A stretch of 64,000 nucleotides of DNA from an uncultured Acidimicrobiia bacterium (GCA_963786955.1 CAWBAT010000008.1:64001-128000); one strand, 5' to 3'; shown: positions 9,461 through 52,426, counted from the first letter of the stretch. Made by a program: numbers and translations. Notes: generated by a model from the letters alone, not told the origin.

Positions 9461-9997
9461 GGTAGCCTCCTTTCCTTTTTGTGAACGGATAGTATAAATT
9501 TACCGGCCTTCCGGCTTCATCTAGCAGAGTGAAGTCTCCCTAACCCGCCCCGTCTGGCCTCCTTTTCCTTCGCAGGGAGCGGATTTAACTTCTATATAAG
9601 AATGCGTAGAAGAATCTAAAAAACTGGCAAGTCGTGAAAATATTTTTGACGGGGAATATGACATCTGCCCGCTTTGACATGGAAAGATAGGGCAGTCATT
9701 GAGTTAGGCCAGTCTTCTCGAAACGTCTGTTTTTGTCGTGTATCCGGTGAACGCATGTTGCTGCCCAATGGACCTGCCATTAACTGAGGAGATTGCGTAG
9801 AGGGGGGTAACTTTTTTATTTTTGGTTGATTTTTGTGGTTGCATGTGTTTGCTAGCGGGAATAGACTAAATTAAATATGGGTAGCACCTGAAGCAGGTCT
9901 CCCAGGTTTCATTTCATTCCGCAAGCATTCCACTCACTTCAGGTTTTTGAAGATCTACACCTATACCCCAGGGCTTCTTCCTTCTAAGGGAGGCTCC

Positions 9998-10633
9998 ATG
10001 GCGAAAGCGTCACCTCAAGAAGTCACACAACTACTCGAAGCCTGGGGTCATGGAGATCAAAAGGCTCTCGGGCAACTCATCCCCGTAGTTTATAAAGAGC
10101 TGCACCGGCTGGCTCACCGTTTTATGAGTCTGGAGCACTCGGGCCCACCGCTGCAGACCACCGAACTGGTCGACGAAGCTTACCTCCGACTCGTTCGGGC
10201 CCAGCAAGTCCCCTGGCAGAACCGGACACACTTTTTGGCAATCGCGGCCCGTCTCATGCGGCAGGTGCTGGTCGACCAAGCCCGGACACGTTACTCCCTT
10301 AAGGGCGGAGGTGCGGTCCAACACATTCCCCTGGACGAGAAGTTTGAGCTTCCTGAGGAGAAGAGCGCGGATCTGTCAGCATTGGATGAGGTTCTGAAAG
10401 CTCTGGCCGTCTTTGATGAGCGCAAAAGTCAGGTCGTAGAGCTCCGTTTCTTTGGGGGGCTCACGATTGAGGAGACAGCGGAGGTCTTAAAGGTTTCCCC
10501 CGATACGGTCATGCGAGACTGGAACGTGGCCAGGTTATGGCTCTACCGGGAGCTTTCACAAACAAGAGACCAGATGGCGATGCGCAATTTGCTTCCCTTC
10601 AAGGATGGGGAAGCGAAGAGCATCAAGGAATAA
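9998..10633 (+). CDS. ECF sigma factor, kinase-associated (TIGR02999/ECF43-like)
   Basis: EVTQLLEAWGHGD, VYKELHRLA, LQTTELVDEAY, WQNRTHFLAIAA, VVELRFFGGLTIEETAEVL. GGAGG RBS before ATG 9998. Confidence 0.92.
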   Translation: MAKASPQEVTQLLEAWGHGDQKALGQLIPVVYKELHRLAHRFMSLEHSGPPLQTTELVDEAYLRLVRAQQVPWQNRTHFLAIAARLMRQVLVDQARTRYSLKGGGAVQHIPLDEKFELPEEKSADLSALDEVLKALAVFDERKSQVVELRFFGGLTIEETAEVLKVSPDTVMRDWNVARLWLYRELSQTRDQMAMRNLLPFKDGEAKSIKE

Positions 10634-10750
10634 ATGGGAGGAGATGGTATGGCGGACCTTATGGTATAAGGCCTGCGGCGTTTCCTATACACTCACATCT
10701 CAATCGTGCTGAAAAAACGGAAAGCCTGACGTCAGAGTGGGAGGAAAACG

Positions 10751-13700: not shown

Positions 13701-13756
13701 TTTCAATGATCGAGTTTCCCGAATCCAGTCTCGTGATGGTGGAAAACTTCCGCTGA
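10751..13756 (+). CDS. Membrane Ser/Thr protein kinase with extracytoplasmic TolB/PD40 beta-propellers
   Basis: GVGGMGEVY, VALK, HRDIKPGN, DFG, YMSPEQ; one TM helix; repeated (F/W)SPDG motifs. Confidence 0.95.
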   Translation: MEQNRWQHISQVLEASLEHETGSRAQFLAEACGGDEELRREIDSLLAFEPELKHFLETPVLEQISQSQTAKPEPSLVGQQIGIYKIVSQLGVGGMGEVYRALDTRLGRTVALKILPAEVAQDQNRMRQFIREARAASALNHSNICTIHHVGESIGIHFIVMEYVEGETLAQQMEERRSPIVSRKSPSHPQEIKSAEGKPLEKRQLRLVETSEILDLGIQVADALEEAHSKGITHRDIKPGNIMLTPRRLVKVLDFGLAKMTRKEGETTRIDLKTPTRVEPGLIRGTVSYMSPEQVLGREVDYRSDLFSLGAVLYEMATGRLPFAGTTSTETMDMILHAQPEPIAKFRHDLPAELVRIIKKLLEKNRERRYQSAREIGVDLRNLKRDSNSGLKAFSLLSGRYVPVSLRTRNSALRVGIPVIFLLLIGAMLWSYYSSNLREKSAPRLRAFEFTGYPGVEGSPAFSPDGKQVAFSWDSAKRDNFDIYVRYLDEVVPQRLTNHPDIEYFPAWSPDGQWIAFRRLTSGGSDIVVMSARGGKERLIASTTVRLDHLWYLPLSWTKDGKFIIATDKTNPQALNHCIYRFPLEMGRKEQLTFPLPNQDDISSALSPDGKMLAFARGQNIGEADIYLLFLDPLKSGREPQRLTSEMQEIEGLAWAPNGQTIIYSSNRGGALRTLWKISARGGNPEPLIGIGDDAYFPSVAASGDRLIYQRLIFSSSIWRIKELGSRAKPQRHEHSVERMVSPSQKNFDPQFSPDGKKIAFTSAVNSGIFDLWLSDTDGSSLMQLTHLRSVTTFRPRWSPDGTQIAFASSKEGNLDIWVVSAAGGAPRLLTKEKSIDTRPSWSRDGRWIYFASDRGGGFQAWKIPSEGGTAVRVTRKGGFMALESPDARWVYYDKSGQDGIWKIPVNGGEETEVVNEARSGFWAMADEGLFLLHPDTKEGPKIELFQFATHKLETIMTLRDHFGPSTLFDNGLDVTADGSWIIFSMIEFPESSLVMVENFR

Positions 13757-17659: not shown

Positions 17660-18843
17660 TTAGACTTTGGCATCGACAGTTATTGCTCGCACCTCTTGCC
17701 AGCTCCCACTCTGCCAGGAACGTTGAAGAGCGGCTTGTACCTTAGCAACCTCGAGAGAATCAGCAAATCCAGGCTCCCCTTGCTTGCCCTCCGCGATCGA
17801 CGTCAGAAATTGGAATGCTTCGATGGTCTTTAGATCCTCGTAACTCAGCCCAATGCCGGGGCCCGGGTTGAAGCGGAGATGGAAAGGATGCTCGGGACTG
17901 CTGAGGACCCGCACATAACCTCCTGAGGCATTGTCCCCACCTGCGAACGAGACTTGCAATTCATTCATTCGTTCGAAATCCCAACTCAGGGCTCCATTCG
18001 TTCCGTGAACTTCAAATGCCATCTGACACTGCGGGCCTTTGATAATTCGGCAGGCCTCCAGCGTGCCATGCGCACCGTTTGTGAAGCGGACCAGGGCTCC
18101 GGCATAATCTTCATTGGTTACGTTCCCCTTGGGACCGTCGCCCCCCAGGCTGAAATGAGTGCCTACCCCGGGTATGGGGAGAGGTCGCTCCGTAATGAAA
18201 GTCTCGGCATTCCCCACGACGCGTTGAATTGGCCCGGCGATCATGTGAGCCATATCGATGACGTGTGACAATAAGTCTCCACTGGCGCCTAAGCCGCCCA
18301 ATTCCTGTTGAAAACGCCACGACAGGACTCCTTGCGGGTTGGTTGCGTATCCAGCAAAGAAACGTCCGCGGTAATGAGTGAGCTTTCCGAGCCGCCCGTC
18401 CTGTATAAGATTCCGGGCATATTGCACCAGGGGCGCCCAACGATAGTTGTAACCGACAAAGGTGAGGACTCCGGCTTAGCGGGCCGCCTGTTCGATGGCG
18501 GCGGTCTCCTCGGGGCTCCTGCCCACCGGCTTCTCGCAAAAAATATGTTTGCCGGCTTTTGCGCTCGCCTTGCCATTTCCAAATGGAAAAAATTGGGAGA
18601 AGCAATATTAATCACTTCGATTTCCGGGTCGTTAACCACGGACAGCCATTCGGTCGTACAGCGCTCAAAGCCCAGTCGATCCCGGGCGTCCTGGGTCCTT
18701 GACTTTACATCGTCGGCGCAGGCAATGAGACGCGGTTGGAGAGCGCAGTCTGGAAAACGTTCCGCGATTTGACGGTAGGAACGACTATGCTGGACACCCA
18801 TCCAACCCATTCCGATGACACCGATTCCGATACTGCGTGGCAT
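17660..18843 (-). pseudogene. Interrupted Gfo/Idh/MocA oxidoreductase (inositol dehydrogenase-like)
   Basis: N-part GVIGMGWMG; frameshift at about 18561-18572 before [10 protein letters not shown]; in-frame TAA at 18476-18478 ([20 protein letters not shown]). Confidence 0.8.
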
Positions 18844-19374
18844 CCCTGAAGCTCCCCCTTTCTCAGAAAACCAGCTCGATCAATAAGAATCTTTAATCTG
18901 CAATTCGAAGCGTATTTACGACCCAGACGGCCAGATGCATTGCGCGCGATATCGTACATCGTAACAGGCGCCGTCTGTCAACACATGTGTATCCCTACCC
19001 ACCCAGTTGGGATTGAAACTATAAAGAATCGAACAATCAGATGATTCTGTTCATGAGGGCATTTAGGGCAGTTCAATTGAACGTAGTGAGATGAGCCAAT
19101 GGTCTAGAACCTTTGCTCACTGGTATACGCCCGATGCAGGTCTGCGAGGTTAGAGAGGAAGCCGGTGAGGTCAGCTAAGTTTTGTGATGTCTGGTCTCGG
19201 AATGGCCTTCGACAGTCATTGGCAAACGGAGCTACTCAATCACTAGGGTTTGTCCTTTGATTGCAACAATAGGGTCCGGGTCTTACGAGAAAGTCAGCGG
19301 TTGAACTAAAGCAAGGGCTTCCCGTCGAAGCTGATCGATTTTGACCCGGAGTAAGTTGCATTCTCGCTCTTCGA

Positions 19375-22300
19375 CTAAACCGCGCCGGTCAGTTTATCTA
19401 TCAACAACCCTGTCAGGTGGGCAACAGTCCGCCCCTTTAAGAGTTGTGCCATCGGAATACTCACCTTTAAGTCGGTCTCAATCCGATTTAACAACTCAAG
19501 GGCCATCAACGAATCAAACCCAAAGTTGTTCAGAGGCTTTAGCGTGTCTATGCTGCCGGCCGGGAGTTGCAGCACTCTAGCGAGTTGGTCGCACAAATAG
19601 TTCTCCAACATTTGTTGGCGTTCTCGTGGCGTAACAGCCAAAAGGCTCTGCAGCGTCAAACTGTGGTCTTTCCTTTCACCAACCGGACTTTCAAACTCAT
19701 GCGTGAAGTGAGCAATCAGCCGCAGTTCCTTAGCTGCCGGGAAAAATTGGCAGAATCGTGTCCAATCAATTGGCAGCACCACCATCTGGGGCGGGGCTTG
19801 GTACAGTAGTTTCGCTAAGATCTGGACGCCTTGCTCCGGTGAGATGAAGTCCATCCCTTGGTCACTCAAACGGCGCTGGTCTTGATCGTGAGCGGCCGCA
19901 ACCATCCCCACTTCTGACCATGGGCCCCAATTAATGCTCAAGGCTGGAAGCCCTTGCGCTTGTCGAAGGTGTGCCAAAGCATCCAAAAAGGCATTGGCGG
20001 CGGCATAATTCCCCTGACCGGGCGCGCCCAAAATTGGAGCCGTGGAGGAGAACAGCACAAAGAAGTCCAATTCCTTATTTTTCGTGAGCAAATGCAAATT
20101 CCAAGCTCCGTCCACCTTGGGAGCCATCACGCGAGCAAAACGCTCCCACTTTTGTTGCAGCAACACGCCATCATCAAGAGCGCCAGCCGCATGAATGATG
20201 CCTCGCAATGGCGGCATCGCATCATCGATTTCGGCGATAACCTTGGTGATTTGGTCATGCTGAGAGACATCCGCCCGGGCAACCACCACCCGTGCTCTCG
20301 TCTTTTCCAGCTTACGTACAATATCTCCGGCATCTCCGGTGGCACCACTGCGCCCGACAAGCACCAAATTCCGTGCTCCTTGGGCTACCAACCACTCGGC
20401 TGCCTTAAGCCCCAAGCCCCCCAAGCCGCCGGTAATGAGATACGTCGCATCGGCATTGAAAGTCCCGTCGGCCGACCGCAACGTCTTCTCTTCCTGGGTA
20501 AGTACAATTTTTCCAACATGCTTAGCTTGCGCCATGTACCGAAACGCACCGATTGCTTCTTGGATGGGAAAGACGCGATACGGCAGTGGTTCGAGGGCTC
20601 CTGATTGGACACTCGCCATCAGCTTGCGCAGCATCTCTTGGATTAACCCGGGCTCTGCGTCCACGATGTCGCCCAAGTAAAATACAAAATAAGCGATATC
20701 GGGTTTCAATCGAACGACCTGGCTTTCGTCCCAAATGCCCGTCTTGCCGATTTCCAGAAAACAGCCCTTCGGGGCCAGCACCGACAAACTCTTGGGAATA
20801 AAATCGCCGGCCAAAGAGTTGAGCACAATATCGACGCCACGCCCCTCCGTCAGGGCCATCACCTCATCGGCAAAATCGAGCGTGCGCGAATCCAAAACGT
20901 GCTGTACGCCCAATGAGCGTAGAAGTGCGCGCTTCCTAGGACTGCCGGCTGTAGCAAAAATTTCCGCACCGACTCGCTGCGCCAGTTGCACGGCAGCCAT
21001 TCCTACGCCGCCAGCGGCCGCATGAATTAAGACCCGCTTCCCGGCTGAGATCTTGGCCAGATGATGCAACGTGTAGTATGCGGTCAGGAAAGCAATGGGC
21101 ATCGTAACCGCTTGCGCAAAGCTCAAGTTGTGTGGTTTGGGCACCACCAGATCGGCCCGGGTCACTACAGATGAGCTAAAACTGCCATAGGCCACTCCCA
21201 CTACCTCGTCCCCAACCTGCACCCCTTTGACACCTTCGCCCACAGCTGTAATCGTTCCGGAACACTCATCTCCAAGTAAATTGTCCGCACCCGGATACTT
21301 TCCCAATGCTTTTAAGACGTCTTTAAAGTTGAGGCCCGTTGCCTGAACGCGAATCTCCACTTCACCTGGGCCTGGCTCGTGGAGTGTCTTGGGGCGGAAC
21401 ACCAACGTGTCCAAAAGGCCACGTGAGTTAACATCGAGCTGGAACGCCCGATCTTCCGGCACGACGAGGCGATGTTTGGCCTCATCCTCGCTTCGGTGGT
21501 GACGCACTATTCTCGCCACCCAGCGGTTAGCTCCCCGAAACGCAACCTGTGTTTCCCTTGCACCTGACCAGGCTTCCCTGAACAGGAGCTCACTTTGATC
21601 GGTTTCCGGCCATGGGTCCAAATCTACTCGTACACAGTGCAGCCCCGGGTGTTCCATGGCGATCGTGCCGCCCAGCCCCCAGAGCGTTGCCTGAGCGACG
21701 GTCAGAAGTGTGGGTTCGGGCCCTGCCGGCTGTGCGCCGCGCGTAACCAGCCATAGGCCCTGCAAACCTTCTCCTAATGTTGCCAGTGCCTGAACCAAGT
21801 GGAGAGCGCCACCGCAAATCTGTGCCTGTGTCGTTTCTTTTCCCGGTTCACTATCCAATGCCCACAAGTAAATCACCCCACGAAGTAGCCGGACTGTTTC
21901 CACGGCTTCTTGGAGTAATCGTTGAAAATCGGCGGGGCGGCTTGGATTGACTTGCCAAAGCCCACCCTTGGCGGCCGCATAAGTCTCGCCGGGAATGACG
22001 AGAACACATGTTTCACCTTGCGCCTTCAGGCGTTCGGCCAGAGCTTCCCCGACTCCACCCTGGTCCGCTAAAATCAACCATCCTCCCGCCTTTTCCCTTG
22101 AGTTTTCGATTTCAAGTTTGGCATCGAATTCCTGAATCTCCCAGGCCACCTCATACAGCCAAGAATCAACGTCTGTTAGGATGGCTCGCTGCAAGGCTTC
22201 GCGCGATGCGTGCCTGAGGTACAAGTCTTCCACCTCTGCCACGATCTGCCCAGTCTCATCAAACAAACGGACATCCACGGCGAAGCTATCTTGGCCTTCT

Positions 22301-25300
22301 GCATCGTTTGGTTTGCGAATAATCTGACCCCATAACGGGGTGGAAGAGCGTTGGTAAATACCAATTCGCTTCATGCCGACTGGCAAATAAACGCCAGTGC
22401 CCATCTTCCCGGTCTCAAACGATGACGCCAGCAAAAGTTGGAAGGCAGCATCGAGCAGCGCTGGATGAATTCGATAGGCGTCTAGATCATTTACCAGGGC
22501 TTCGGGCAAGCATATTTGTCCCAGCACTTCCCCTTCATGCCGCCAAATTTGGGTAATTCCCTGAAAGCGCGGCCCATATTGAAGTCCCAGCTCGCGGACG
22601 CGTGCATAAAATGCACTTGCGTCAATCTCTTCTTGGCAACGTGCTTGTGCCGCGGAAAGTGAGGCGCCATCCAATATAGGTTCTCGATCGGCTTGTCGCA
22701 GGCGAATATTACCCGTCACATGTACTTTCCAATTGCCTTTCTCGGTTAGACTGACTACCTGAAAAGCTGCCGTTTCAGTATCCTCCGGCGTTAGAATGAG
22801 CTGAACAACCGTTGCCTCGGGGGAAGCATCTGGCAGAATCAGGGCTTGGTGAATCGTAACTTCTTCTAGCAGATGATTGCCCGGGCCGAAGGCCGCACTC
22901 GCGGCTGCGAGTGCCATCTCAACATAAGCAGTCCCCGGCACCACTACCGTCCCATAGACTCGATGATCCGTTAGGAAGGATGGCGAATCGGCATGCAAAT
23001 GAACTTCAAACTGAATCTCTTTCAGTGCCGAGCGCAGCCTTTGACCGAGCAAGGGATGAAGCGCCGTTTTTCCCGCACCTTCCTTCGATAGCCCGATACT
23101 CCGGCTTTGAGCATGCTTTTCCCCTCCTTCAAGCCAGTAACGCTCGCGCTGAAACGGATAGGTAGGCAGCACCACGCGGCAACGTCCGCGTGCATAGTCG
23201 TGTTCAAATCCTGCATGGTCCACATCCGCCCCGTGAACATACAACGTTCCCAGACTCTCCAGCATCTGCTGCCAGTCTGCAATATTTTTCCGGAGCGAAG
23301 GGAGCCAAACCTGGGCCTGCTGCGCCTCCGGGATACACAACTTTCCCATTCCCAAAAGTATTGGGCTTGGGCCAATTTCAAGGAAGAACGTATATCCCTC
23401 GCGTTGAAGGGTCTGCATTGTCGCGGAGAATCTTACCCCTTGTCGGATGTGACGCTGCCAGTAAGCTGTGTCTGGTATTTCATCGAAATTCAGCATTTGC
23501 CCTGTCAAGTTGGAGACTAAAGGAAGACGCGGGGCATTGTAATCCACTTGGCGGGCGGTTTGCGCGAAGGCATCCAGCATCGGTTCCATCAAAGGCGAGT
23601 GAAAAGCATGCGAAACGTTCAGAGGCTGAGTCTTCACTTTCTCATTCCGAAGTTTTTCAATCACAGTCTGCACGGCGGTTCGCTCGCCGGATATCACGAT
23701 ATTCTTTGGGCCATTATAGGCAGCGATGGAAACGGATTGGAAATAAGGAGCAATGGCTGCCTCTACGCGCTCTTCTCCTGCGAACACCACGGCCATCATC
23801 CCGTCCCTTGGAAGGGCCTGCATGAGGCGACCACGCTCGGCAATGAGCTTCAGTCCATCATCTAGGGTGAATACGCCAGCCACGCAGGCCGCCACATATT
23901 CACCAACACTATGACCCAGCACAATCGCCGGCTCTATCCCCCAGGATCGCCACAGCGCTGCCAACGCATATTCAATGGCAAATAACGCCGGTTGGGTGTA
24001 AGCGGTCTCGTCCAGCAATGAAGACGAACCGGATTCCGGGTAAAGCACTGACAAGAGCGGCTGTTCCAAGTGGGGACGGAGTAACTCGTTGCACTTGTCT
24101 AATGCCGCGCGGAAGGTGGGCTGGGTCTCATAAAGTTGGCGTCCCATGCCAACATATTGCGAGCCTTGACCTGTAAACAGGAAAGCCACCTTGGGCTTTT
24201 CCGTGCCTTCGATTTGTCCGCTCATCACGCCGGGTTGTTTTTGCCCGTTTGCAAAAGAGTTCAGTTTCTCCCGCATTTGGAGGGATGACTCGGCCACAAC
24301 CGCTAGGCGATGATTAAAATGGCCTCGCCCGGTATTGGCGGTGAAACAGATATCCGCTAGTGAAGCTAAAGGTTCGGCCGTCAGGTGTCTCTCAAATCGA
24401 CCGGCAAGCTCCTTTAATGCCACTTCGCTTTTCGCCGAGACATTGAGAAGATGGAGTGGTCTGTCAGCTTCAAGCTTCACTGGTTGGGCTGCAGGGGCTT
24501 CCTCCACTACTACGTGAGAATTAGTTCCGCTCAGTCCAAACGAGCTGACGCCGGCAATTCTTTTTTCATTCCCGGCAGGCCAGCGGGTTCGTCTTGTCGG
24601 AATGGTGACCGGCACCTCATTCAATGAAATATGTGGATTGATCTGTTTAAAGTGCAACAAAGGTGGTATTTCCTCATTCTGCAATGAAAGCACCAATTTG
24701 ATGAGACCGGCAATGCCGGCTGCGGAGTCGAGGTGGCCGATATTGCTCTTGGCCGAGCCAATCATCAAACGTCTATTCTCTGCTCGTCCCTCGCCGAGCA
24801 CTGCTCCCAAAGCCCGCACCTCAATGGGGTCTCCAAGGGAAGTCCCGGTACCGTGAGCCTCAACATAACTTATCTGAGCCGGTTGGACTCGGGCATCCGT
24901 TAGAGCTTGGCGAATCATCGCCTGCTGAGCCAGTCCGTTCGGAACGGTCAGGCCTCCACTGGGGCCATCATGGTTGACTGCTGAGCCTCTGATCAATGCG
25001 AGGATGTTGTCACCATTTGCAACCGCATCGGAGAGACGCTTGAGAACAACAACTCCGCAACCCTCTCCTCGTCCAAAGCCGTCGGCGGCAGCATCAAAGG
25101 TTTTGCAGCGACCATCAGCAGACAATGCTCTGAATCTGGAGAGGGTGATGTACAATTCCGGTGAAAGAATCAGGCTCACGCCGCCCGCCAGGGCAAGGTC
25201 GCACTCGCCGGAGCGCAGGCTGCGGCAAGCGAGGTGGACTGCTACCAACGATGAGGAGCACGCAGTATCAACAGAGAGACTGGGGCCGTGAAGGCCCAAG

Positions 25301-25887
25301 ACGTAGGACAACCGACCGGCCGCAAAGCTAAAATTGACGCCGGTAACAAAATAGGCGTCTATGTTTGTGGGATCACCCGCTTTCACATGCAGTTTTGAGT
25401 AATCGTCTGTCATGATCCCCATGAACACGCCTGTCTGGCTGCCAGCTAGTTTGTCCGGTGCCTGTCCGGCGTTCTCCAACGCCTCCCAGCTTACCTCTAG
25501 GAGTAATCTTTGCTGAGGGTCCAGGCTCATTGCTTCGCGGGGGGAAATATTGAAGAATCCGGCATCGAATTTGTCGATGTCATCCAAAAAGCTGCCATAT
25601 CGTGTATAAATCTTGCCAGGCGCATCCGGGTCCGGGTCATGATAAGCCTTGACATCCCACCGGTCCTGCGGCATCTCGGCGACAGCATCCACACCGTTGC
25701 GTAAGAGCTGCCAAAACCCCTCCGGATTATTGCCTCCACCAGGGAAACGGCACCCCATGCCGATAACCGCAAGAGGTTCCGTTTTCGAACGCTCGACGGC
25801 GTCGAGCTTAGACTGCATTTTCTCCAGCGAGAAAAGTGCCTGCTTCAGTGGAGACAAAAAGCCGGGATGTTCTGAGTTCTGACTCAT
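19375..25887 (-). CDS. Type I PKS module KS-AT-DH-ER-KR-ACP
   Basis: KS DTACSSS/HGTGT/NIGHL; AT GHSVG plus HAFHS (malonyl-CoA type); [12 protein letters not shown] and DAAFQ; [12 protein letters not shown]; [13 protein letters not shown] (B-type) and YAAAN; ACP GFDSL; N-terminal docking helix. Confidence 0.97.
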
Positions 25888-28343
25888 GACAGTTTCTTCT
25901 TTATACTCTCTAATCTTTTGATGAGTAATGCTTCTGCTTCGTCCTCAGAGAGTTGTTCGAGCTCATGCAAATCCATCACTGCCTGAGGATGGTTGGCTGT
26001 CGGTGGTTCCACCTGAGAGGCCCCGGACGGATTCAGCGGCAATACGGTCGAGGCAAGATACCCGGAAAGGGATTCAATGGTCGGATAGTCGAAAACCAGA
26101 GTAGAAGAAAGCGGCTGTCCAAGGCTGGTCTGGAGATGGTTCATGAGCTCAACGGCTGCAAGGGAGTTTAGGCCTACGTCAAACAACCCTTGCTGTGGCC
26201 TTATTGGAAAAGAGGGATCAAGTCCCAGTACATTGACGACCTGATCTCGAACATGTGTCCGCAAGATATCTTGACGTTTCGTTGGAGACGCTTCCTCTAA
26301 TCGCCGCAAAAATTCTGGCCGTTCTTTCGCCGGCTGCATGCTTAATTGCAATTCGCCTGCCAGCTTGGATGAATGATCTTCATTAGGAGCCTGATCTCGC
26401 GTAATATCTCCCCCTTCAACACTTAAGCCCCCTCCCTCTTTGTGCAGCCACTCTAACCAGAGGCGCTCGCGTTGCCAAGGATAAGTGGGTAGTTGGGTAC
26501 ATTGGTTCTCATCCGGATAGAGCCCGTTCCAATTCACCTTATTCCCTTGGGCATAGATAGAACCCAATGCCTCAAGCATAATTTTCCGATCCGCGTTTTT
26601 ATCTATCGCAGAAGAAACTACAGTACTTGCTTGATTGCACTCATGTAGCAATCGAGAAATTGCCTCGGAAAGGGCGGGATAAGAGCCAGATTCTGGGAGG
26701 TCGGGCTGATCCTCCCTAACCTTTGGGCTGAAGAACACACCGGGTGTCACCTTCCTCTGTAGGAATGATTGCAGGGACTGGGCCAATGCTTGCAAGGAAT
26801 GACCTATGAGGGCGAGGCGGTATTCATGATGGCTTCGCCGCACGCTAGCGGTGTAACAAATGTCTCGCAGCGAGACACCAGCTCCGATCCCTTTTTCGGT
26901 CAGGAAATTTTTGTAAGCCAGCGCAAGGTCCAATAGCGCCTTCGGAGTGCGTGCAGATAACGTTAGAATTTGCGACTCTCCGTCAACGGGCTGTTCCGCA
27001 CCATTCCTTGCGATGCTGGCGGAGCGAGATTGCTGTCCAGCACCCCGTGGAGGGGCCTCCAACACGGCATGTGCATTGCCCCCAGCCATGGAAATTGCAG
27101 TCACTCCCGCCAGTGAGGGTCCAGATTTGGCGGGCCACGGACCCAGTGTCCGTTGTGCCAACAGGCCGAGCGATTCCATGGGAATCTTCGGATTGAGATG
27201 CTGAAGGTGTAAAGTCGGTGGGATCTCTCCGTGATAGAGGGAAAGCGCCACTTTAATGAGGCCAGCAATACCGGATGCCGAATCCAAGTGACCAATGTTG
27301 GTTTTGACAGAGCCCACAATACAGGGACGAAGACGCTGGGTTCCAGAGTTGAGGACGGCCCCTAGTGCGTTTGCCTCGATGGGGTCGCCTTTGGGAAGTC
27401 CTGTGCCATGCAACTCTACATAGTCGATTTCAGTCGGCTCAACACCCGCGACATGAAGGGCCTCACGAATAACGGTCTCTTGGGCTGATGAGTCACTGGC
27501 CATGATCCATTCGTTATGGCCATTGTGGTTGAGCGCAGTCCCGCGAATGAATGCGTAAACGCGGTCTCCGGGCATTAACTGAGAGCGTAACTTGAGCACA
27601 ATGACCCCGGCGCCCTCCCCGCGAACAAAGCCATCTGCCCGGGCGTCTAAGGTTTTACAGCATCCATCAGGAGAGAGAACTCCGGCCTTGGACAGCATGA
27701 TGTTGACATCGGGCGACAGAATGAGATTCACTCCACCCGCCAATGCCAGGGTAGTCTCTTCCATCCAAAGACTCTGACAGGCAGTGTGGACCGAGGCCAA
27801 CGACGCGGCACAAGCACCATCAATGGCCATGCTTGGCCCCCTCAAATCAAAGAAGTAGGAGATTCGGCTCGGAGCAAAAGCAAAGGCATTGCCGGTAGCC
27901 GCGTAACCATTGAGCTGCAAAGGTTCCCTCGACTGCAGCCTGAGATAGTCGTTCCACATGATCCCCATGAACACGCCAGTCGGGCTGCCACGGACGCTTT
28001 CCAAGGGCAGCCCAGCATCTTCAAGAGCCTCCCACGCGACCTCGAGGAGCAGGCGGTGCTGTGGGTCCATATATTTCGCTTCTCGTGGAGGAATTCGAAA
28101 TGCACGCCAATCGAATTGATCGGCATTGTCGAGGAATCCACCGCGCCGGCTGATCATCTTGCCGGGGCTGTTGGGGTCCGGATCATGGAGTGAGTTTACG
28201 TCCCAGCGATCGGCCGGAACCTCGCGAATTGCATCGCTTCCTTCTCGCAGCAGCTTCCAGAACGCTTGTGGACTGGGAGCCCCTGGGAGACGGCACCCCA
28301 TCCCCACAATGGCGATGGGCTCACGCGGAATTTTTGAATTCAC
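25884..28343 (-). CDS. AT-less PKS module KS-(AT linkers only)-ACP
   Basis: KS DGAC/HGTG/NIGHL; KS-AT linker followed almost directly by the post-AT linker LPTYPWQRERLW with no GHS AT core; ACP GLNSL; C-terminal docking helix. Confidence 0.9.
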   Translation of the reverse strand: MNSKIPREPIAIVGMGCRLPGAPSPQAFWKLLREGSDAIREVPADRWDVNSLHDPDPNSPGKMISRRGGFLDNADQFDWRAFRIPPREAKYMDPQHRLLLEVAWEALEDAGLPLESVRGSPTGVFMGIMWNDYLRLQSREPLQLNGYAATGNAFAFAPSRISYFFDLRGPSMAIDGACAASLASVHTACQSLWMEETTLALAGGVNLILSPDVNIMLSKAGVLSPDGCCKTLDARADGFVRGEGAGVIVLKLRSQLMPGDRVYAFIRGTALNHNGHNEWIMASDSSAQETVIREALHVAGVEPTEIDYVELHGTGLPKGDPIEANALGAVLNSGTQRLRPCIVGSVKTNIGHLDSASGIAGLIKVALSLYHGEIPPTLHLQHLNPKIPMESLGLLAQRTLGPWPAKSGPSLAGVTAISMAGGNAHAVLEAPPRGAGQQSRSASIARNGAEQPVDGESQILTLSARTPKALLDLALAYKNFLTEKGIGAGVSLRDICYTASVRRSHHEYRLALIGHSLQALAQSLQSFLQRKVTPGVFFSPKVREDQPDLPESGSYPALSEAISRLLHECNQASTVVSSAIDKNADRKIMLEALGSIYAQGNKVNWNGLYPDENQCTQLPTYPWQRERLWLEWLHKEGGGLSVEGGDITRDQAPNEDHSSKLAGELQLSMQPAKERPEFLRRLEEASPTKRQDILRTHVRDQVVNVLGLDPSFPIRPQQGLFDVGLNSLAAVELMNHLQTSLGQPLSSTLVFDYPTIESLSGYLASTVLPLNPSGASQVEPPTANHPQAVMDLHELEQLSEDEAEALLIKRLESIKKKLS

Positions 28344-28364
28344 CGCAGTAGTTCCCCCAGATGT

Positions 28365-28643
28365 TTACAATTGGCGAGGTTCTGCCCGCTGTGCTCCTGC
28401 GAGTTCCACAACCAAGTTAGTTATAGAGGTCAGATCCTTGAAATTGTCTGGAAGAATCTTATCCGCGGGCACTTTCACACTGAATCGGTCTTGGATAAAG
28501 CTAACAATTCTGGCCATCTCAATCGAGTTAATAATCCCCCATTCAAGCAACGGAGTCGATTCATTCAGACCGATATCTTTTCCGTCAAGCACCTCTCGGG
28601 AAATATAACTTTTTACGCCATCGAGAACTTCTGATTGGTTCAT
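28365..28643 (-). CDS. Stand-alone prolyl/pyrrolyl carrier protein (PltL-like)
   Basis: TPLLEWGIINSIEM phosphopantetheine motif, closely resembling PltL (PLLEWGILNS, from memory). Confidence 0.88.
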   Translation of the reverse strand: MNQSEVLDGVKSYISREVLDGKDIGLNESTPLLEWGIINSIEMARIVSFIQDRFSVKVPADKILPDNFKDLTSITNLVVELAGAQRAEPRQL

Positions 28644-28807
28644 GTTAATCTCTCTTTAAATACTCTATTCTGCAATCAATCTATTTGACAATGCCAGGTC
28701 ACTTACCGTTGCATAATAAGCGCTTCTGCTGCTAGCAGTAAGCCTGAATTTTCAATAGGTTTTCCACCTTAATGGATAACTGGCTCTCTCCGCTGGTGAT
28801 GCAAAAC

Positions 28808-30310
28808 TCAAGAATGAGCCACATCACTCATCAGACTGAGTCGATCAACTTTTCCATTCCTGGTACGAGGAAGGGAATTCAGGAAATTCACTTTATCGAC
28901 AATCATGTAGCGGGGAAGACGCTCGGCACAGTGTCGTTTGATGTCGAGCAACGTAGGCGGTTCGTCGGCTGTGCTCACAATAAAGGCAATGAGCCGTGCC
29001 TCTACCCCACTACCGGATACGACAACCGTTGCCTCCTTGACCTTGGGGTATTGTCCAAGAGCCGCCTCGATGTCTCCCAGCTCAACACGGTGGCCGCGCA
29101 CCTTCACCATGTGATCTTTGCGCCCAATGTACATGTAGTTGCCATCCTCCTCGAGCCGAACAATGTCGCCGGTAGCATACGGCTTGTCGCCGTGAAGTGG
29201 CTGCCCCCAATAGCCCAGAAGCACGGTTGGGCCGGAGACCATCAGTTCGCCTTGCTCTCCTGGGTTGACCTCGGTACCATCGTCTTTGACCCCCCATACA
29301 CGGTCGCCGGAGCATGCCCGGCCGATAGGAACCGGCTTCGTGCGATCCTTCGCGATCTCAGTCACCTCATAGAAGGTACAGACATTGGTCTCGGTCGGGC
29401 CATAGAGGTTGAGATATCGCATTGAAGGCCAACGTTCATATAACCGCCGCAAGTGCCCAATAGGAAATGGCTCGCCAGCAAATAGGATGGCGCGAAGTGG
29501 ATTATGCTGCAGCTCCAGCAGTCCACCCTGCTCCATCATGAGGATCAATGCGGATGGGACGGAATACCAAATTGTTATGTTTTCTTGGATGATAAAGTCG
29601 ACCAGTCTTTGGGGAACATAGGACATTCCATCGGGAATTAGGGAAACTACTCCGCCCGCGCGAAACGCCACGTAGAGATCGAGTACCGATAGGTCAAAAT
29701 GGAACGGGGCGTGGTTAGAAAAATGATCGGCCGAATTTACCCGAAGTTCATCGGCAGCCCAATTGATAAATGCGAGGGCATTGCGATGGCTGATACAAAC
29801 CCCCTTGGGCTTGCCGGTTGAGCCAGACGTATAGAGTATGTAAGCCAAGTCATCGTCAGCAGGGGCCGGTAGTTCTACCGACCGGTCTGAGAATGCCGAT
29901 AGGTCATTCCAGCTAATTCCTTGCCCGGTATCATCCACGCACAAACGCGTCACCTGTTTGAGATCATCTGTGAGAATGGATTCGGCGCGGTTTGCCGTGC
30001 TCACGAGCGCTCGCATGGCGCAGTCCTGCACGATCGTGCGGGTTCGAGCCGCAGGAGCCAGCGGGTCGAGCGGAACGTATGCCGCCCCGATTCGCAGCAC
30101 GCCTTGCATCGCCGCTACTGCGCGCGCTGACTTGTCAAGCCAGATTCCGACTCGGTCGCCGCTGCAGACACCCTGCTCGGCCAGCGCTCGGGCGATACGG
30201 TTCGCCAGGCGATCCAGTTCGCCATATGTGAAGTTGCCATCTGGGCCCTTGACAGCCAATGCGTCCGCTGTGCGCTGCGCGCTCAGGATAAGAATGTCTT
30301 TCAGACTCAT
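28808..30310 (-). CDS. Stand-alone adenylation enzyme, L-proline--carrier ligase (PltF/RedM-like)
   Basis: YTSGSTGKPKG, FDLS, AGE, YGPTETNVC and NGKVDR motifs; manually read specificity code DLLYLALVCK. Confidence 0.9.
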   Translation of the reverse strand: MSLKDILILSAQRTADALAVKGPDGNFTYGELDRLANRIARALAEQGVCSGDRVGIWLDKSARAVAAMQGVLRIGAAYVPLDPLAPAARTRTIVQDCAMRALVSTANRAESILTDDLKQVTRLCVDDTGQGISWNDLSAFSDRSVELPAPADDDLAYILYTSGSTGKPKGVCISHRNALAFINWAADELRVNSADHFSNHAPFHFDLSVLDLYVAFRAGGVVSLIPDGMSYVPQRLVDFIIQENITIWYSVPSALILMMEQGGLLELQHNPLRAILFAGEPFPIGHLRRLYERWPSMRYLNLYGPTETNVCTFYEVTEIAKDRTKPVPIGRACSGDRVWGVKDDGTEVNPGEQGELMVSGPTVLLGYWGQPLHGDKPYATGDIVRLEEDGNYMYIGRKDHMVKVRGHRVELGDIEAALGQYPKVKEATVVVSGSGVEARLIAFIVSTADEPPTLLDIKRHCAERLPRYMIVDKVNFLNSLPRTRNGKVDRLSLMSDVAHS

Positions 30311-30384
30311 GCGTCCAATTCCTTAAATTTTACGAAACTGCTTTTGATTAGTTAATGACGAAGCGAGCCGACCACGGGTGTCCT

Positions 30385-31530
30385 CTATAAACCCAACCAA
30401 CGAGCAATGACCACCCGCTGGATGTCGGACGTGCCGGAATAAAGTATCCCGCCGACGGCGTCACGTAGATCGCGCTCCACCTCAAACTCGGTTGTGTAAC
30501 CATACCCACCATGGATTCTTACGGCGTCGAGGCTCGATTGGACAAAACACTCACTCAGGTGGAGTTTGGCCATCGCGGCTTCCATCACGGCGGGTTTGTC
30601 CATCTTCTTGAGCCAGGCAACTTTATACAAAAGCAGCCGGGAGGTTTCCAAACGTACCTGCATGTCAGCGATGCGATTAGCCACTGATTGAAATTTGCCG
30701 ATCGGTTGGCCAAATTGGCGGCGCTCACGCGCGTATCGAATGCATATTTCCAATTGATGCTCCATCGCGCCGATGTGGCTGGCCAGAATGCAACTCCGTT
30801 CCCATTCCATCGAACTGCTGAAGATGGTGACCCCGGCTCCCTCCGGCCCCAGCCGACTCTCAGCGGGCACGTAACAATCGTCCAAAATTAATTCTCCCAT
30901 CGGTGAAGTACGCAAGCCCATCTTCTCCGTGTGACCACCCACACGAAAACCCGGCGTGCCTTTCTCCACCAAGAAAGCGCCGATGCCGCCGATGCCTTTG
31001 GCAGGATCTAAGGTCGCAAAAACCACGGCTAGATCGGCCATGGGGGCGCTAGTAACGAAAACTTTGGTGCCGTTTAGCACGTAACCGTTATCACGCTTCT
31101 CAGCACGTGTGCGCAGACTGTAGGCATCGGACCCCGAATCCGGTTCAGTCATCCCATGAGCACCAATCAGGTCTCCGCCGCACAATCCAGGCAGATATTT
31201 TTCCTTCTGCGCTTCCGTACCAAAAGTTAAAATAGGGAGTTGCACACTCCACATCTGAGCATTCAAAGCAAAAATTAACCCGTTGTCACGACATCCATAT
31301 CCTAGCCCTTCCATCGTCAGCATCGTCGTCAGAATGTCTGCGTCGGTGCCGCCGTATTTTCCCGGAATGGGCAATCCTTGAATGCCTAACTGGGCGCACT
31401 TTCGCCAATTTTCAGTTGAAAATTCTCCGTCTTTATCACGCTGCACTAGGTTGTTGTTCAGCTCTTGTTGGGCAAATTTGATCACTTCGTGTTTGAACGA
31501 GAGCTGTTCTTCTGTCCAGGAAAAATCCAT
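30385..31530 (-). CDS. Acyl-CoA dehydrogenase family, L-prolyl-carrier dehydrogenase (PltE/RedW/AnaB-like)
   Basis: MTEPDSGSDA, LNGTKVFVT, KMGLRTSP, RQFGQPIGKFQ, HGGYGY and YSGTSDIQR motifs, plus context; ATG 31530. Confidence 0.9.
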   Translation of the reverse strand: MDFSWTEEQLSFKHEVIKFAQQELNNNLVQRDKDGEFSTENWRKCAQLGIQGLPIPGKYGGTDADILTTMLTMEGLGYGCRDNGLIFALNAQMWSVQLPILTFGTEAQKEKYLPGLCGGDLIGAHGMTEPDSGSDAYSLRTRAEKRDNGYVLNGTKVFVTSAPMADLAVVFATLDPAKGIGGIGAFLVEKGTPGFRVGGHTEKMGLRTSPMGELILDDCYVPAESRLGPEGAGVTIFSSSMEWERSCILASHIGAMEHQLEICIRYARERRQFGQPIGKFQSVANRIADMQVRLETSRLLLYKVAWLKKMDKPAVMEAAMAKLHLSECFVQSSLDAVRIHGGYGYTTEFEVERDLRDAVGGILYSGTSDIQRVVIARWLGL

Positions 31531-31899
31531 CGTTTCTCTCACTCTCTCTAGGCAACGGCGAATTTTAACTTCCTGCGCCGAACCAGAAGTTCCCAATCAT
31601 GAGTTACCTTTGTGGTGACTCTGCGATGCGCTCATAAAGTACCCTAGTGATTCCGCTGAGAAAGTGTTCGAGGCTCTCAGCAACCACCAGTAGAAAAGAA
31701 TTCCAAGTCCTGTCGATGAAGCTGTGACAATGGGGGGACAGTGTGCACTTGAAAGCGCTATTGCTCTGATCTTGCCATGTGAACAGCGTTTGGGGCGTGT
31801 TACTGAGGTCATCCAAGTCCCTGAAAATCGTTATGGCACAGTCCGGCACGCGCGTGCTCATTGTAATATCGGCCCGAAGTGCGGGCAAGATTAATCCCG

Positions 31900-32130
31900 C
31901 ATGCCCTTGCGAGCGTCGGATCATCGAGGACGCCGTACCAGGCTTGGTGTAGCTTTGCGATGAAGTCGATGTTGGCGGAGGACTCGGGGAGTGGTGACTT
32001 CATAACGAATTAGGGCCTGACACGATCCTGAGGATTGAATTCACGAACATAGCGGGGCAGGTATTTGATTTCGATGTCGGGGTGAGCGCTAAGCACTTCT
32101 CGAATCGGTCGGCCTTGCTTATCCAGTCCA
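31900..32130 (-). mobile_element. Degenerate IS630-family transposase C-terminal fragment
   Basis: Manual translation GRPIREVLSAHPDIEIKYLPRYVREFNPQDRV resembles the IS630 LPxYSPELNPIE motif; stop codons on both sides. Confidence 0.45.
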
Positions 32131-32165
32131 CATAGAATGCAAGACTTTCTTCATTCCGAAGAAAC

Positions 32166-32864
32166 TCAGTGGGTCCAATCGAAACAGGTAAGATTCCACT
32201 CCGGGCCCTCGACCGCGACCGCTCCCACGTAGCCCGGTTCGACCGGAATATCCCGTAAATGCCAGAGCGAAGCGTCTGCGAATCCTGGTAACGATCTCAA
32301 CAGAGCCGCGGGTTCTCCGGGACTCAAGGAAACCTCAAACTGATCCAGGTCAATCCCCAGCCCTTTACCCAATCCTTTGATGTAGGCTTCCTTGCGTGTC
32401 CAGCAGCGAAAAAAGGCGCTGCACCGTTCAGAGGGAAGAAGCCTCATGAGTTTGGCTGTCTCCTCCTGACAGAAGAAACGCACGGCTAGCACTTCCATGT
32501 CAGAAATCTGCCTGATCTGTTCCACATCGATGCCGATCTCACGTTCTATCGAAAAGCCGAAGACCGCCACGTCTTGCGAGTGTGCAAGGTTGAATCGAAG
32601 CCCCTCTTTGTTTTCAATGAAAGGTTTGCCATATGGACTGTAGTGGAGACTTAATTGGTTCGGTTGGCTGCTGAGATAATTTCCCAATAGTGTGCGTAAG
32701 ATCCCACGGGAGACCACAAACTGCTTGCGGTCTTTTTCGAAATGGAATCGGTTCGCGCGCGAAATTTCATCGTCTGAGAGCAAATCTTCGAGATCCCGCT
32801 GAGCGATATCTTTGGAATCTAAAACGGCTTGCCAAACATGAACTTCGTTAGTTTTGAGCCTCAA
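32166..32864 (-). CDS. Sfp-type 4'-phosphopantetheinyl transferase
   Basis: YGKP, FNLAHS, IGIDVE and FFRCWTRKEAYIKG motifs. Confidence 0.93.
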   Translation of the reverse strand: MRLKTNEVHVWQAVLDSKDIAQRDLEDLLSDDEISRANRFHFEKDRKQFVVSRGILRTLLGNYLSSQPNQLSLHYSPYGKPFIENKEGLRFNLAHSQDVAVFGFSIEREIGIDVEQIRQISDMEVLAVRFFCQEETAKLMRLLPSERCSAFFRCWTRKEAYIKGLGKGLGIDLDQFEVSLSPGEPAALLRSLPGFADASLWHLRDIPVEPGYVGAVAVEGPEWNLTCFDWTH

Positions 32865-32970
32865 TGGCTGAATGGAAGAGTGATTTCGAGTCGTGACTCC
32901 CTCCCCGACTCTATGGATAAGGTCTGACTGAAGGGCGTTGCGAGACTTGAAGAAAAGAGTACAAACTGAT

Positions 32971-33057
32971 TGGTGCGGAAGGGGGGACTTGAACCCCCAC
33001 GCCCTTGCGAGCGCTAGAACCTGAATCTAGTGCGTCTGCCAATTCCGCCACTTCCGC
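32971..33057 (-). tRNA. tRNA-Leu(CAG)
   Basis: GCGGAAGTGGCGGAATTGGCAGACGCA-CTAGA-TTCAGGT-TCTAG...GTTCAAGTC...CTTCCGCACCA; long variable arm, encoded CCA. Confidence 0.97.
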
Positions 33058-33067
33058 AACATGCTTG

Positions 33068-33096
33068 TTTCTACCATAGCCACTTTTCTCAAGCAA
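33068..33096 (-). promoter_or_regulatory. Putative sigma70 promoter of tRNA-Leu
   Basis: TTGCTT-N17-TAGAAA with TGn extension, just upstream of the tRNA. Confidence 0.45.
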
Positions 33097-33160
33097 GGAA
33101 AACATAGGCCACGTGCCATCTTCAGCGGTATCTAGATTGTACGAAACCGCGATAACCCTC

Positions 33161-33949
33161 CTAGTCGTCCGGCCTCGTAGAACTCGTCCCTCCAGAAAGA
33201 GCTTGGATTTGGAATCCATTTCGGGAAAGCGCTTCCCTGATATGCCTCAAGATAGTTAATGCCGAAGGATTGTCTCCATGAATGCAAATCGTGTCGGCAT
33301 GAAGGGATATTTCTGCCCCGCTTGCTGTTTTGAGTTTACCCTTGAGAACGATGTCCAAGCATTGCCGGGACGCCTGGACAGGATCTGTAATGAGGGATCC
33401 CGGTTGGGATCTTGGGGTGAGGCTTCCGTCAGTTTCATAAGTTCGGTCGGCGAAAGCTTCCTCCGCAAATGGGATCCTGGCAGCCTTGGCCGCAGCAATC
33501 AACTGTGAGCCGGCGGCCCCAAACAGAATCCATTCAGGATTCAAAATTCTTACAGTACTTGCTATTACTTGGGCGAATTTCCAATTTTTGGCGGCCTCAT
33601 TGTAAAGCCAGCCATGGGGTTTGATGTGGCGAATCTGGCTGCCGGCAGCTCGAGCAAAAGCATCCAGCGCACCAATCTGGTACAGCAAGAGATTTTCGAT
33701 ATCCTCTGTTGTAAGATTCATTGCGCGTCGGCCAAAACCTTCCGCGTCTTGCGTTCCCGGATGAGCTCCAATCGAAACACCATGACGCAGCGCCAACGAG
33801 ACGCTCTCTCGCATTACCTGCGGATCGCCGGCATGAAAACCGCAAGCAATGTTTGCCGAAGAGATGAGGGGGAAAATAGCGGCGTCTCCACCAGACTTGG
33901 CAATCCCAGTCCCCTCACCCAAGTCGCAATTAAGATCGATCGCTTTCAT
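33161..33949 (-). CDS. pxpA: 5-oxoprolinase subunit A (LamB/YcsF family)
   Basis: IDLNCDLGE, SANIACGFHAGDP, GAHP, HIKPHG, EAFADRTY and TICIHGD motifs. Confidence 0.92.
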   Translation of the reverse strand: MKAIDLNCDLGEGTGIAKSGGDAAIFPLISSANIACGFHAGDPQVMRESVSLALRHGVSIGAHPGTQDAEGFGRRAMNLTTEDIENLLLYQIGALDAFARAAGSQIRHIKPHGWLYNEAAKNWKFAQVIASTVRILNPEWILFGAAGSQLIAAAKAARIPFAEEAFADRTYETDGSLTPRSQPGSLITDPVQASRQCLDIVLKGKLKTASGAEISLHADTICIHGDNPSALTILRHIREALSRNGFQIQALSGGTSSTRPDD

Positions 33950-48500: not shown

Positions 48501-48671
48501 GCGCGCCGTCCCCTGGGCCTGGCTGTCGTCGGAGGTTTGGTGGTTTCTCAACTGCTGACACTCTACATCACGCCGGTCTTTTATTTGTATATGGAATCGT
48601 TCCGAGAAAAGGTTAGCCGTTTCAGAGCACGACACCGGAAAGTAGATCCAGTTCAAGTCGTGGAGGGTTGA
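45559..48671 (+). CDS. RND efflux permease (MdtB/MdtC-like), frameshifted at about 46005
   Basis: FIRRPVMT, GFVVDDAIV, GIVKKNAI and RFRPIMMT motifs; adding one C to the C4 run at 46005-46008 restores LPLSTVDEYAETMMAQRIS. Confidence 0.9.
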
Positions 48672-52223: not shown

Positions 52224-52426
52224 AAGTCCGAATCTCCTTTTCCGCCGCTCACGAGTGCATCTACTTACAGGCCAACAATTAATTTTATTCACAAGTCTAA
52301 TGGTTGGGAATGAATAAAATTTGCAGGAGCAGGAATTGTTACTTACGATGTTATCCTGAGTATGTGAGGCAGAGCATTCGCTAAATAAAGATGGAATGGG
52401 TTTTGTGACCAAAAAACCCATCGGCT

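Follow-up and report, generated by a model that had tools for sequence, protein, structure and literature searches.

Six genes at positions 19375-32864 of the 64,000-nucleotide stretch CAWBAT010000008.1:64001-128000 (the window), which is deposited under an uncultured Acidimicrobiia bacterium, appear to form an island of 13.5 kb, intact and acquired horizontally, that would make a small polyketide from proline, with a pyrrolyl C9 compound as its predicted collinear product. From the sequence we give this reading a probability of roughly 0.55. The original prediction had placed six co-oriented genes in this interval, encoding a phosphopantetheinyl transferase (PPTase), an acyl-CoA dehydrogenase, an adenylation (A) enzyme, a carrier protein and two polyketide synthase (PKS) proteins, and all six were found within those limits on the minus strand. 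The domain orders proposed for the two PKS proteins, ketosynthase (KS)-acyl carrier protein (ACP) and KS-acyltransferase (AT)-dehydratase (DH)-enoylreductase (ER)-ketoreductase (KR)-ACP, were both recovered in Pfam searches. That account is supported in its main lines, but it overlooked the lack of an AT in the KS-ACP module, the thioesterase (TE) found in relatives, and the status of the cluster as an accessory island linked to a tRNA gene.

The proposal of proline priming holds up well. Because the closest solved relatives of the A-enzyme, the carrier and the dehydrogenase are all from prolyl-carrier systems of the group PltF/L/E, RedM/O/W, PigI/G/A, AnaC/D/B and Bmp4/1/3, the predicted loading of proline and its oxidation on the carrier are well supported. 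The A-enzyme passes the NCBIfam amino-acid adenylation model TIGR01733 (360.6 bits against a cut-off of 317.4). Its best solved relative is PltF (PDB 6o6e, 494 bits), with which it is identical at all ten aligned positions of the A-domain code, DLLYLALVCK, read as originally claimed. All dehydrogenase-linked A-domains of the fetched loci but one have a code of the form DL[LF]Y[LIV]A[LF]VCK, the exception being L021 with DMLQLALVCK; some rows of this comparison end before the last position. The carrier motif EWGIINS was likewise located, within LLEWGIINS as against LLEWGILNS in PltL. PltL is the best solved relative of the carrier (51.7 bits), followed by the 77-residue chain A of 6cxt, which we take to be the Bmp1 carrier domain, and then PigG. 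Conversion of proline to pyrrole is textbook priming chemistry, and the A-enzyme would adenylate L-proline and load it on to the PltL-like carrier. An A-domain activating a substrate other than proline was set aside, the code being identical to that of PltF. No paper containing the string DLLYLALVCK was found in the literature searches.

By sequence the dehydrogenase falls within the clade of prolyl-carrier dehydrogenases and is an equivalog of neither PigA nor RedW. Its top four PDB matches are all prolyl-carrier dehydrogenases and lie well above ordinary acyl-CoA dehydrogenases: AnaB (4irn; 477.6 bits, with 205 of 382 aligned positions identical, about 54% by hand count), 6cxt_B (336.8 bits), and 5zw0 and 6af6 (both about 320 bits). 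PMC3252866 and PMC6053186 give 1-pyrroline-5-carboxyl-ACP as the product of AnaB and describe its elongation by AnaE with a fully reduced acetate. A window enzyme that, like AnaB, stopped at a two-electron oxidation would supply 1-pyrroline-5-carboxyl-S-carrier as the starter. After two extensions the chain would have reached the length of the AnaF stage of anatoxin, and intramolecular attack on the imine could yield an azabicyclic amino-acid thioester. The lead of AnaB over the other prolyl-carrier dehydrogenases (336.8 and 321 bits) speaks for this variant, as does a cluster with neither a halogenase nor a methylase that would need an aromatic ring. We nevertheless consider it unlikely. A dehydrogenase 69% identical to that of the window, from a locus in the same phylum (L040), is also best matched by AnaB (425 bits), and a flavin halogenase lies about 3 kb from it. 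The best PDB matches of this halogenase are 5bva/5bul (250 bits), presumably Bmp2-type enzymes acting on the pyrrolyl-S-carrier, with 5buk and PltA (5dbj) next. Likeness to AnaB therefore does not imply a two-electron enzyme, since an AnaB-like dehydrogenase shares its locus with a halogenase.

Other relatives tell further against the pyrroline variant. In L024 a gene of the Trp-halogenase family adjoins that of the carrier; L013 and L061 (genome G680) have such a gene immediately upstream of that for the dehydrogenase. These three loci have A-enzymes 64-74% and KS domains about 49-64% identical to those of the window; their dehydrogenases come from another branch (43-48% identical to the window's, with that of L024 best against 6cxt_B), and the two branches look interchangeable within one cassette. 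No equivalents of the anatoxin cyclase, AnaF, AnaG or AnaA were seen on the 36 neighbouring window open reading frames (ORFs) scanned with Pfam, a subset of the ORFs listed and the basis of all Pfam absence calls here. The order of reduction is also reversed relative to AnaE followed by AnaF, the unreduced extension here coming first and the fully reduced one second. Because a same-clade dehydrogenase and relatives of the cassette lie near halogenases, a four-electron oxidation to pyrrole is favoured over pyrroline at roughly 3:1. The flavin dehydrogenase would thus act on the prolyl-S-carrier and take it through four electrons to the pyrrolyl-2-carboxyl-S-carrier. In a separate homologue search with the dehydrogenase, all 120 matches listed had 381 aa and an identity of 64-95%, in most cases 76-81%. 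The small number of named ones came from Chloroflexota (Ardenticatenaceae, Anaerolineales), and the matches listed were closer than most matches inside the window's own phylum.

The next protein is a KS-ACP module with the KS cysteine in DGACAAS, the HGTG and NIGH motifs, and the post-AT motif LPTYPWQRERLW. Pfam detected no AT in it, and no AT remnant was present in residues 520-700. Solved AT-less KS constructs (PksJ, PksL, 4qyr, 4zdn and 7zma) align to it through residues 630-641, an end-point that corresponds to the span of a KS plus its flanking subdomain. The best solved match is 7zma (685.1 bits summed over two stretches), presumably from a trans-AT PKS, and the second is CurL (517.6 bits). 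As in the trans-AT systems PksJ/PksL and 7zma, the KS and flanking subdomain run directly into the post-AT motif and then the ACP; in contrast to those systems, the second-best relative, CurL, is cis-AT and the next module in the window carries its own AT. This is the only AT found: no discrete AT gene was seen on the scanned window ORFs, the rest of the genome not having been searched.

The KS-ACP gene comes directly after the carrier gene in five of the nine loci in which the proline trio is visible, and after one intervening radical S-adenosylmethionine (radical-SAM) or halogenase gene in the other four. Its KS begins about nine residues from the N-terminus and its ACP is followed by a tail of about 55 residues, while about 36 residues precede the KS of the large PKS. 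Terminal lengths of this kind are read as a docking pair, and the tail and the N-terminal stretch of the PKS fit docking of KS-ACP on to PKS. Transfer from carrier to KS-ACP to PKS is the best reading of the sequence, because of the gene order in relatives, these terminal lengths and the TE fused to the large PKS in relatives. The KS would accept the starter from the discrete carrier and condense it with malonate on its own ACP, which would receive its extender in trans, the malonyl-type AT of the protein that follows being the simplest donor. The predicted first condensation product is 3-oxo-3-(pyrrol-2-yl)propanoyl-S-ACP.

The 2170-residue protein has the features of a cis-AT modular PKS: a canonical domain order, the KS Cys-His-His residues, AT GHSxG and the cofactor motifs. 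In detail, the KS has DTACSSS, HGTG and NIGH, the AT has GHSVG and HAFH, the DH has HxxxGxxxxP and the ACP has DSL; the ER motif is present, as are the KR cofactor motif, LDD and the S/Y/N residues. HAFH is typical of a malonyl-type AT and LDD of a B-type KR. This module would add a second malonate and fully reduce the new beta-keto group, giving 5-oxo-5-(1H-pyrrol-2-yl)pentanoyl-S-ACP. The predicted chain is made up of pyrrole-2-carbonyl, a C2 unit left unreduced and a further C2 unit, after whose addition the preceding keto group would be reduced completely. The protein stops about 10 residues past the ACP without a TE. Pfam found no TE on the scanned ORFs, and the TE domain of a relative gave a best E-value of 2.2 by tblastn against the whole window. 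Because the lineage is without a TE, release would be by something outside the cluster or by transfer.

Several points weigh against an intact pathway to a free C9 pyrrole. The cluster has no TE, condensation or reductase domain for release. The collinear product is itself a prediction, a fully reducing module being able to iterate, and trans-loading of the first ACP is an assumption. The single best solved relative of the dehydrogenase is AnaB, and its scores lie below the equivalog cut-offs of both NCBIfam models, PigA (444 against 500) and RedW (405 against 650). Finally, a genome of the same genus (G002) has lost most of the cluster, which is thus dispensable.

The missing release domain also admits a product that is no free small molecule, with the TE-less module either iterating, to build a longer omega-pyrrolyl chain, or holding its product for a lipid or glycan acceptor of the envelope; we think this doubtful. 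A release domain is absent from two full-length orthologues, the window PKS and the metagenomic protein P0246, and the best NCBIfam equivalog of the whole PKS is of the Pks2 type, though below cut-off. Among the cassette loci, L017 adjoins a GT4 glycosyltransferase gene, and L018 adjoins genes for sulfotransferases, a GH5 protein and a GDP-mannose dehydratase. In L039 and L040, the two Pfam-scanned loci among 11 fetched from the window's phylum, a PKS-less proline trio lies amid genes for glycosyltransferases, a sulfotransferase and an epimerase, two Acyl_transf_3 genes and a Bmp2-type halogenase gene, a context that points to pyrrole or halopyrrole decoration of a glycan. Against transfer, no acyltransferase or glycan genes adjoin the cluster on the scanned window ORFs, and the Acidimicrobiia orthologues have an ordinary fused TE, suggesting a released acid; iteration is not readable from sequence. 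Extended to the whole family, the same idea would have the cassette supply a short acyl group with a pyrrole cap, methylated or halogenated in relatives, which would remain on its carrier up to its transfer to a glycan or lipid of the envelope, rather than a secreted antibiotic-like metabolite, and this too we hold to be improbable. If true, envelope transfer would explain the missing release domain, the glycosyltransferase and sulfotransferase neighbours and the bare trio in the glycan-type locus (L039/L040).

The predicted route to a free pyrrolyl product can be set beside three known systems. Like pyoluteorin PltF, PltL and PltE, the window trio comprises a stand-alone proline-adenylating enzyme with an identical code, a discrete carrier with LLEWGI(I/L)NS and an oxidase of the acyl-CoA dehydrogenase fold for the carrier-bound prolyl group. 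Pyoluteorin assembly uses non-reducing chain extension and aromatisation, whereas the window has one AT-less and one fully reducing module. Unlike the pyoluteorin and pyrrolomycin clusters, the window has no PltA-type halogenase on its scanned ORFs, halogenases being found only in relatives. The likeness to the proteins of the prodiginine MBC pathway, PigI/PigG/PigA with PigJ/PigH or RedM/RedO/RedW with RedX/RedN, lies in passing a pyrrolyl-S-carrier to a KS and condensing it with malonyl-ACP without reduction, and PigA is the best NCBIfam match of the dehydrogenase. In contrast to PigJ, the window KS is type I modular and ACP-fused (111.5 bits with the PigJ model against a cut-off of 900), no pyridoxal-phosphate-dependent aminotransferase of the PigH/RedN type was found in the window, and a fully reducing module follows.

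Anatoxin-a biosynthesis shares AnaB as the best dehydrogenase relative, a PPTase of the Sfp/HetI type and full reduction by a PKS module, AnaE (PMC6053186, PMC3252866). It differs in that an AT-less KS-ACP protein intervenes in the window between carrier and fully reducing module, that no AnaF, AnaG, cyclase (orf1/AnaJ) or type II TE (AnaA) was found in the window, and that the context of the window's relatives points to pyrrole rather than pyrroline; the window cluster is not an ana cluster. Judged by sequence, the trio follows the starter logic of pyoluteorin, prodiginines and anatoxin, joined here to a type I PKS. It is a member of none of those clusters, because the window has no halogenase, no PigH/RedN aminotransferase and no AnaF/G, cyclase or TE. 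The absence of a halogenase, an aminotransferase, a further PKS module and a cyclase had been predicted, and none was seen on the scanned ORFs.

Catalytic motifs are intact in both KSs and in the AT, DH, ER and KR, and all three carrier serines are kept. A search with PKS residues 1450-2170 found the metagenomic protein P0246, which is 86% identical to the window PKS over 2170 of 2170 residues without a gap, and which ends 44 residues beyond the window PKS, also without a TE. Its longest contig, of 22,926 bases, has the same length as that of P0002, a dehydrogenase 94% identical to the window's. As P0246 is full-length, 86% identical and TE-less, the TE-less form of the PKS is conserved in the nearest known relative. 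Comparison of the PKS with its remnant in G002 gave a dN/dS of 0.13 over 1241 codons, and therefore purifying selection through most of their divergence. Had the cluster been a truncated relic, a possibility raised with the original prediction, its homologues should always carry further modules; instead, L011 and L012 have the same modules, and P0246 also ends after the ACP.

It is thus very improbable that the cluster is a decaying, non-functional remnant that has lost a TE or downstream modules. Such a history would account for a PKS without a TE where L011 and L012 have one, for the deletion-riddled copy at the same site in G002 and the absence of any in G001, and for the split GFO/IDH/MocA and AcrB genes nearby. 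It is opposed by the six open reading frames with their intact catalytic motifs, by the gapless match to the independent TE-less orthologue P0246, by the dN/dS value, and by the absence of a TE remnant downstream in a tblastn search with the TE domain of L011. Contigs from RNA libraries on cluster genes count weakly in the same direction. In metatranscriptome libraries X18 and X19, from two studies, contigs at least 90% alike were found on the genes of the PKS, the KS-ACP, the carrier and the A-enzyme, one of them reaching from the start of the KS-ACP gene, across that of the carrier, to the 3' end of the gene for the A-enzyme. These are a weak hint of expression, with carry-over of DNA possible. 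Contigs with pieces of the cluster at least 99% alike were also present in sediment-metagenome runs X1 and X3 (two studies), one of which may be the sample of origin. Gaps in contig cover over the cluster in the four runs compared carry no weight.

Related cassettes were collected with the KS-ACP protein as query, which returned 16 loci, six from genomes and ten from metagenomes. What comes after the KS-ACP gene is a reducing-PKS orthologue with 50-77% identity in eight of them (L011, L012, L016, L017, L018, L019, L022 and L025), nonribosomal peptide synthetase (NRPS) A-domains in four (L013, L014, L015 and L024) and a PPTase gene in one (L021); in the other three (L010, L020 and L023) the sequence stops too soon to show it. 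Only two loci show the C-terminus of the PKS, L011 from an Acidimicrobiia metagenome-assembled genome (MAG) and L012 from a Microthrixaceae MAG, and both have a fused TE. They share the window order of dehydrogenase, A-enzyme, carrier, KS-ACP and PKS, with nothing else conserved around the cluster, and this order also occurs on metagenome contigs. Identity to the window across the cassette loci is 64-81% for the A-enzyme, 49-70% for KS-ACP and 50-77% for the large PKS. NRPS modules replace the reducing PKS in L013, L015, L024 and L061.

When the ORFs of 15 cassette loci and the window were clustered, the families conserved beyond the core were a B12-binding radical-SAM protein (five loci), the PPTase (window, L020 and L021) and a halogenase (L013 and L024). 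The radical-SAM proteins (L016, L017, L018, L020 and L022; 578-602 aa) resemble TIGR04190 at 346-353 bits, below its cut-off. Where the carrier is visible, in four loci, their genes lie between those of the carrier and KS-ACP; the L016 contig begins inside the radical-SAM gene, which lies upstream of KS-ACP. By analogy with CloN6, this enzyme may C-methylate the carrier-bound ring. Downstream variation was also seen in the PKS search. P0251, a metagenomic protein of 3012 aa, is 71% identical over ER-KR-ACP, beyond which it has a condensation domain, then a carrier and finally a TE, but no A-domain of its own, so that its chain may be joined to an amino acid loaded in trans. Other matches included six proteins at 54-61% with a TE and several at 59-60% without one. 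The search with PKS residues 1-480 was uninformative on orthologues, because the KS scores of multi-module PKSs add up.

These comparisons suggest that dehydrogenase, A-enzyme, carrier and KS-ACP form a portable four-gene starter cassette, and that it occurs in at least three phyla, Actinomycetota (Acidimicrobiia), Chloroflexota and probably Acidobacteriota. Its tailoring varies (none, B12-binding radical-SAM or halogenase), and what follows it is either NRPS or a single reducing module, which may or may not end in a TE. The architecture had been called unfamiliar. Among the titles and abstracts listed in literature searches there was no matching cluster, and none that links the proline trio to a KS-ACP without an AT and to just one fully reducing module. 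The architecture is not unique, however, being one member of a recurrent, uncharacterised family. The window holds the simplest form, with six genes in 13.5 kb, a malonyl-only AT and a predicted C9 product, which makes it a convenient entry point. It bears on how an AT-less module obtains its extender within a cis-AT line and how a chain leaves a TE-less terminal module. The original assignment of the host to a probable acidobacterium is weakly supported: RNase R is 46% identical to that of an Acidobacteriota MAG, and no match at E≤1e-20 was found in four Actinomycetota/Chloroflexota genomes.

The cluster is an accessory island, rarely found and located at a tRNA hot spot; the copy here is intact, that of a congener decaying. 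Its upstream edge is a tRNA-Leu gene whose 3' end faces the PPTase gene at a distance of 106 bp. The syntenic site, between PxpA/MFS and GFO/MFS genes, was compared in two genomes of the same genus, G001 and G002. G001 lacks the cluster; its site holds 4.3 kb of unrelated sequence, and alignment resumes at the GFO gene. In G002 the remnant (L058/L059) consists of PPTase residues 1-138 joined to the last 44 residues of KS-ACP, then PKS residues 1-1241 (91% identical and still open), then the GFO gene. From these junctions, the segments corresponding to window 26020-32459 and 18982-22163 have been deleted in G002. In the same genome about 16 kb of inserted DNA, which includes NRPS A-domains, is flanked on each side by a copy of the tRNA-Leu segment, and because of this position the tRNA-Leu gene is taken as a recurrent insertion site. 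An att-like direct repeat of at least 10 bases between the tRNA side and the downstream spacer was not found, and no integrase was seen among the Pfam-scanned neighbouring ORFs. The compositional signal is weak (G+C content of 53.8% against 52.1%, with a mildly raised tetranucleotide distance).

A survey for cassette-type A-enzymes used E≤1e-180, equivalent to about 64% identity or more, with three first-look candidates scored per genome. It gave none in 400 other sampled genomes of the window's phylum and one in 401 sampled genomes of the phylum of the Chloroflexia MAG (G680/L061, of the halogenase/NRPS type). Dehydrogenases 59-76% identical to the window's were found in 12 of the 400. None of the 11 loci fetched from the window's phylum (L038-L048) has a KS-ACP or reducing PKS; ten of them have an A-enzyme 40-45% identical but with the proline-type code DLFYLALVCK, and two (L042 and L045) continue into NRPS A-domains and a TE.

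The PPTase scored 220 bits with the NCBIfam HetI model, below its cut-off of 370. As the only other frame of the genome matching the ACPS domain is of AcpS size (130 aa), the PPTase is, by sequence, the only Sfp-type enzyme found in the genome. It would prime the discrete carrier and both ACPs, three carrier domains in all. Homologues 46-47% identical adjoin the cassette in L020 and L021. Two large TE-bearing ORFs lie elsewhere in the genome, and these may depend on the PPTase of the island.

Features of the island and its edges are collected in Table 1. The dehydrogenase probably starts at M23 (31530), because the protein on record for the contig has 381 aa. From the dehydrogenase gene onward the intergenic distances are 74, 164 and 21 bases, followed by a 4-base overlap of the KS-ACP stop and the PKS start.

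Table 1. Coordinates of the island genes, spacers and flanking tRNA gene in the window.
Feature	Position	Strand	Basis or remark
tRNA-Leu (CAG)	32971..33057	-	ARAGORN; Rfam tRNA 54.8 bits
PPTase, Sfp/HetI-type	32166..32864	-	Pfam ACPS + AASDHPPT_N
PPTase/dehydrogenase spacer, ~0.6 kb	31531..32165	.	contains 106-aa ORF 31604-31924
Flavin adenine dinucleotide-dependent prolyl-carrier-protein dehydrogenase, acyl-CoA dehydrogenase fold	30385..31530 (ORF 30385-31596)	-	three Pfam ACAD domains
Stand-alone adenylating enzyme, predicted L-proline:carrier ligase	28808..30310	-	AMP-binding + AMP-binding_C; best PDB match PltF
Discrete PltL-type peptidyl carrier, 92 aa	28365..28643	-	Pfam PP-binding
AT-less PKS module KS-linker-ACP with C-terminal tail, 819 aa	25884..28343	-	Pfam KS, CurL-like linker, PP-binding
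Fully reducing PKS KS-AT-DH-ER-KR-ACP, 2170 aa	19375..25887	-	Pfam order + motifs
Non-coding spacer, 0.53 kb, PKS stop to frameshifted GFO/IDH/MocA gene	18844..19374	.	downstream island edge

The 106-aa spacer ORF is probably not a gene; it matched no Pfam or NCBIfam family and had no tblastn match at any related locus. A further ORF, 32911-33219, overlaps the tRNA-Leu gene and has no Pfam family, and was taken as spurious on these grounds. A scan of Rfam gave no match besides the tRNA-Leu, and promoter-like and terminator-like sites were no commoner than in shuffled sequence.

Among the neighbouring genes, that for the GFO/IDH/MocA oxidoreductase (17660-18843, minus strand) is split into two overlapping frames, whereas in G001 it is intact with 388 aa, and DNA contigs of X1 and X3 have an extra G behind position 18571. 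The split therefore comes from a frameshift of one base, which arose either in the assembly or by mutation in the strain. An AcrB-family RND pump, encoded after an HlyD-type adaptor gene, is similarly divided into ORFs of 160 aa (45559-46041) and 877 aa (46038-48671) on the plus strand with a 4-base overlap, which may be another frameshift. Four ORFs matched no Pfam family at E≤1e-6: 49746-52421 (minus strand, 891 aa) and, on the plus strand, 54222-56468 (748 aa), 5704-7050 (448 aa) and 6713-7822 (369 aa). A P450 gene (52676-54103) and a gene for a multihaem-cytochrome/TPR protein (56544-59135) lie near the large family-less ORFs. At 9947-13756 on the plus strand, a gene for an extracytoplasmic function (ECF) sigma factor (PF07638) is followed by one for a 1001-aa Ser/Thr kinase with PD40 beta-propeller repeats.

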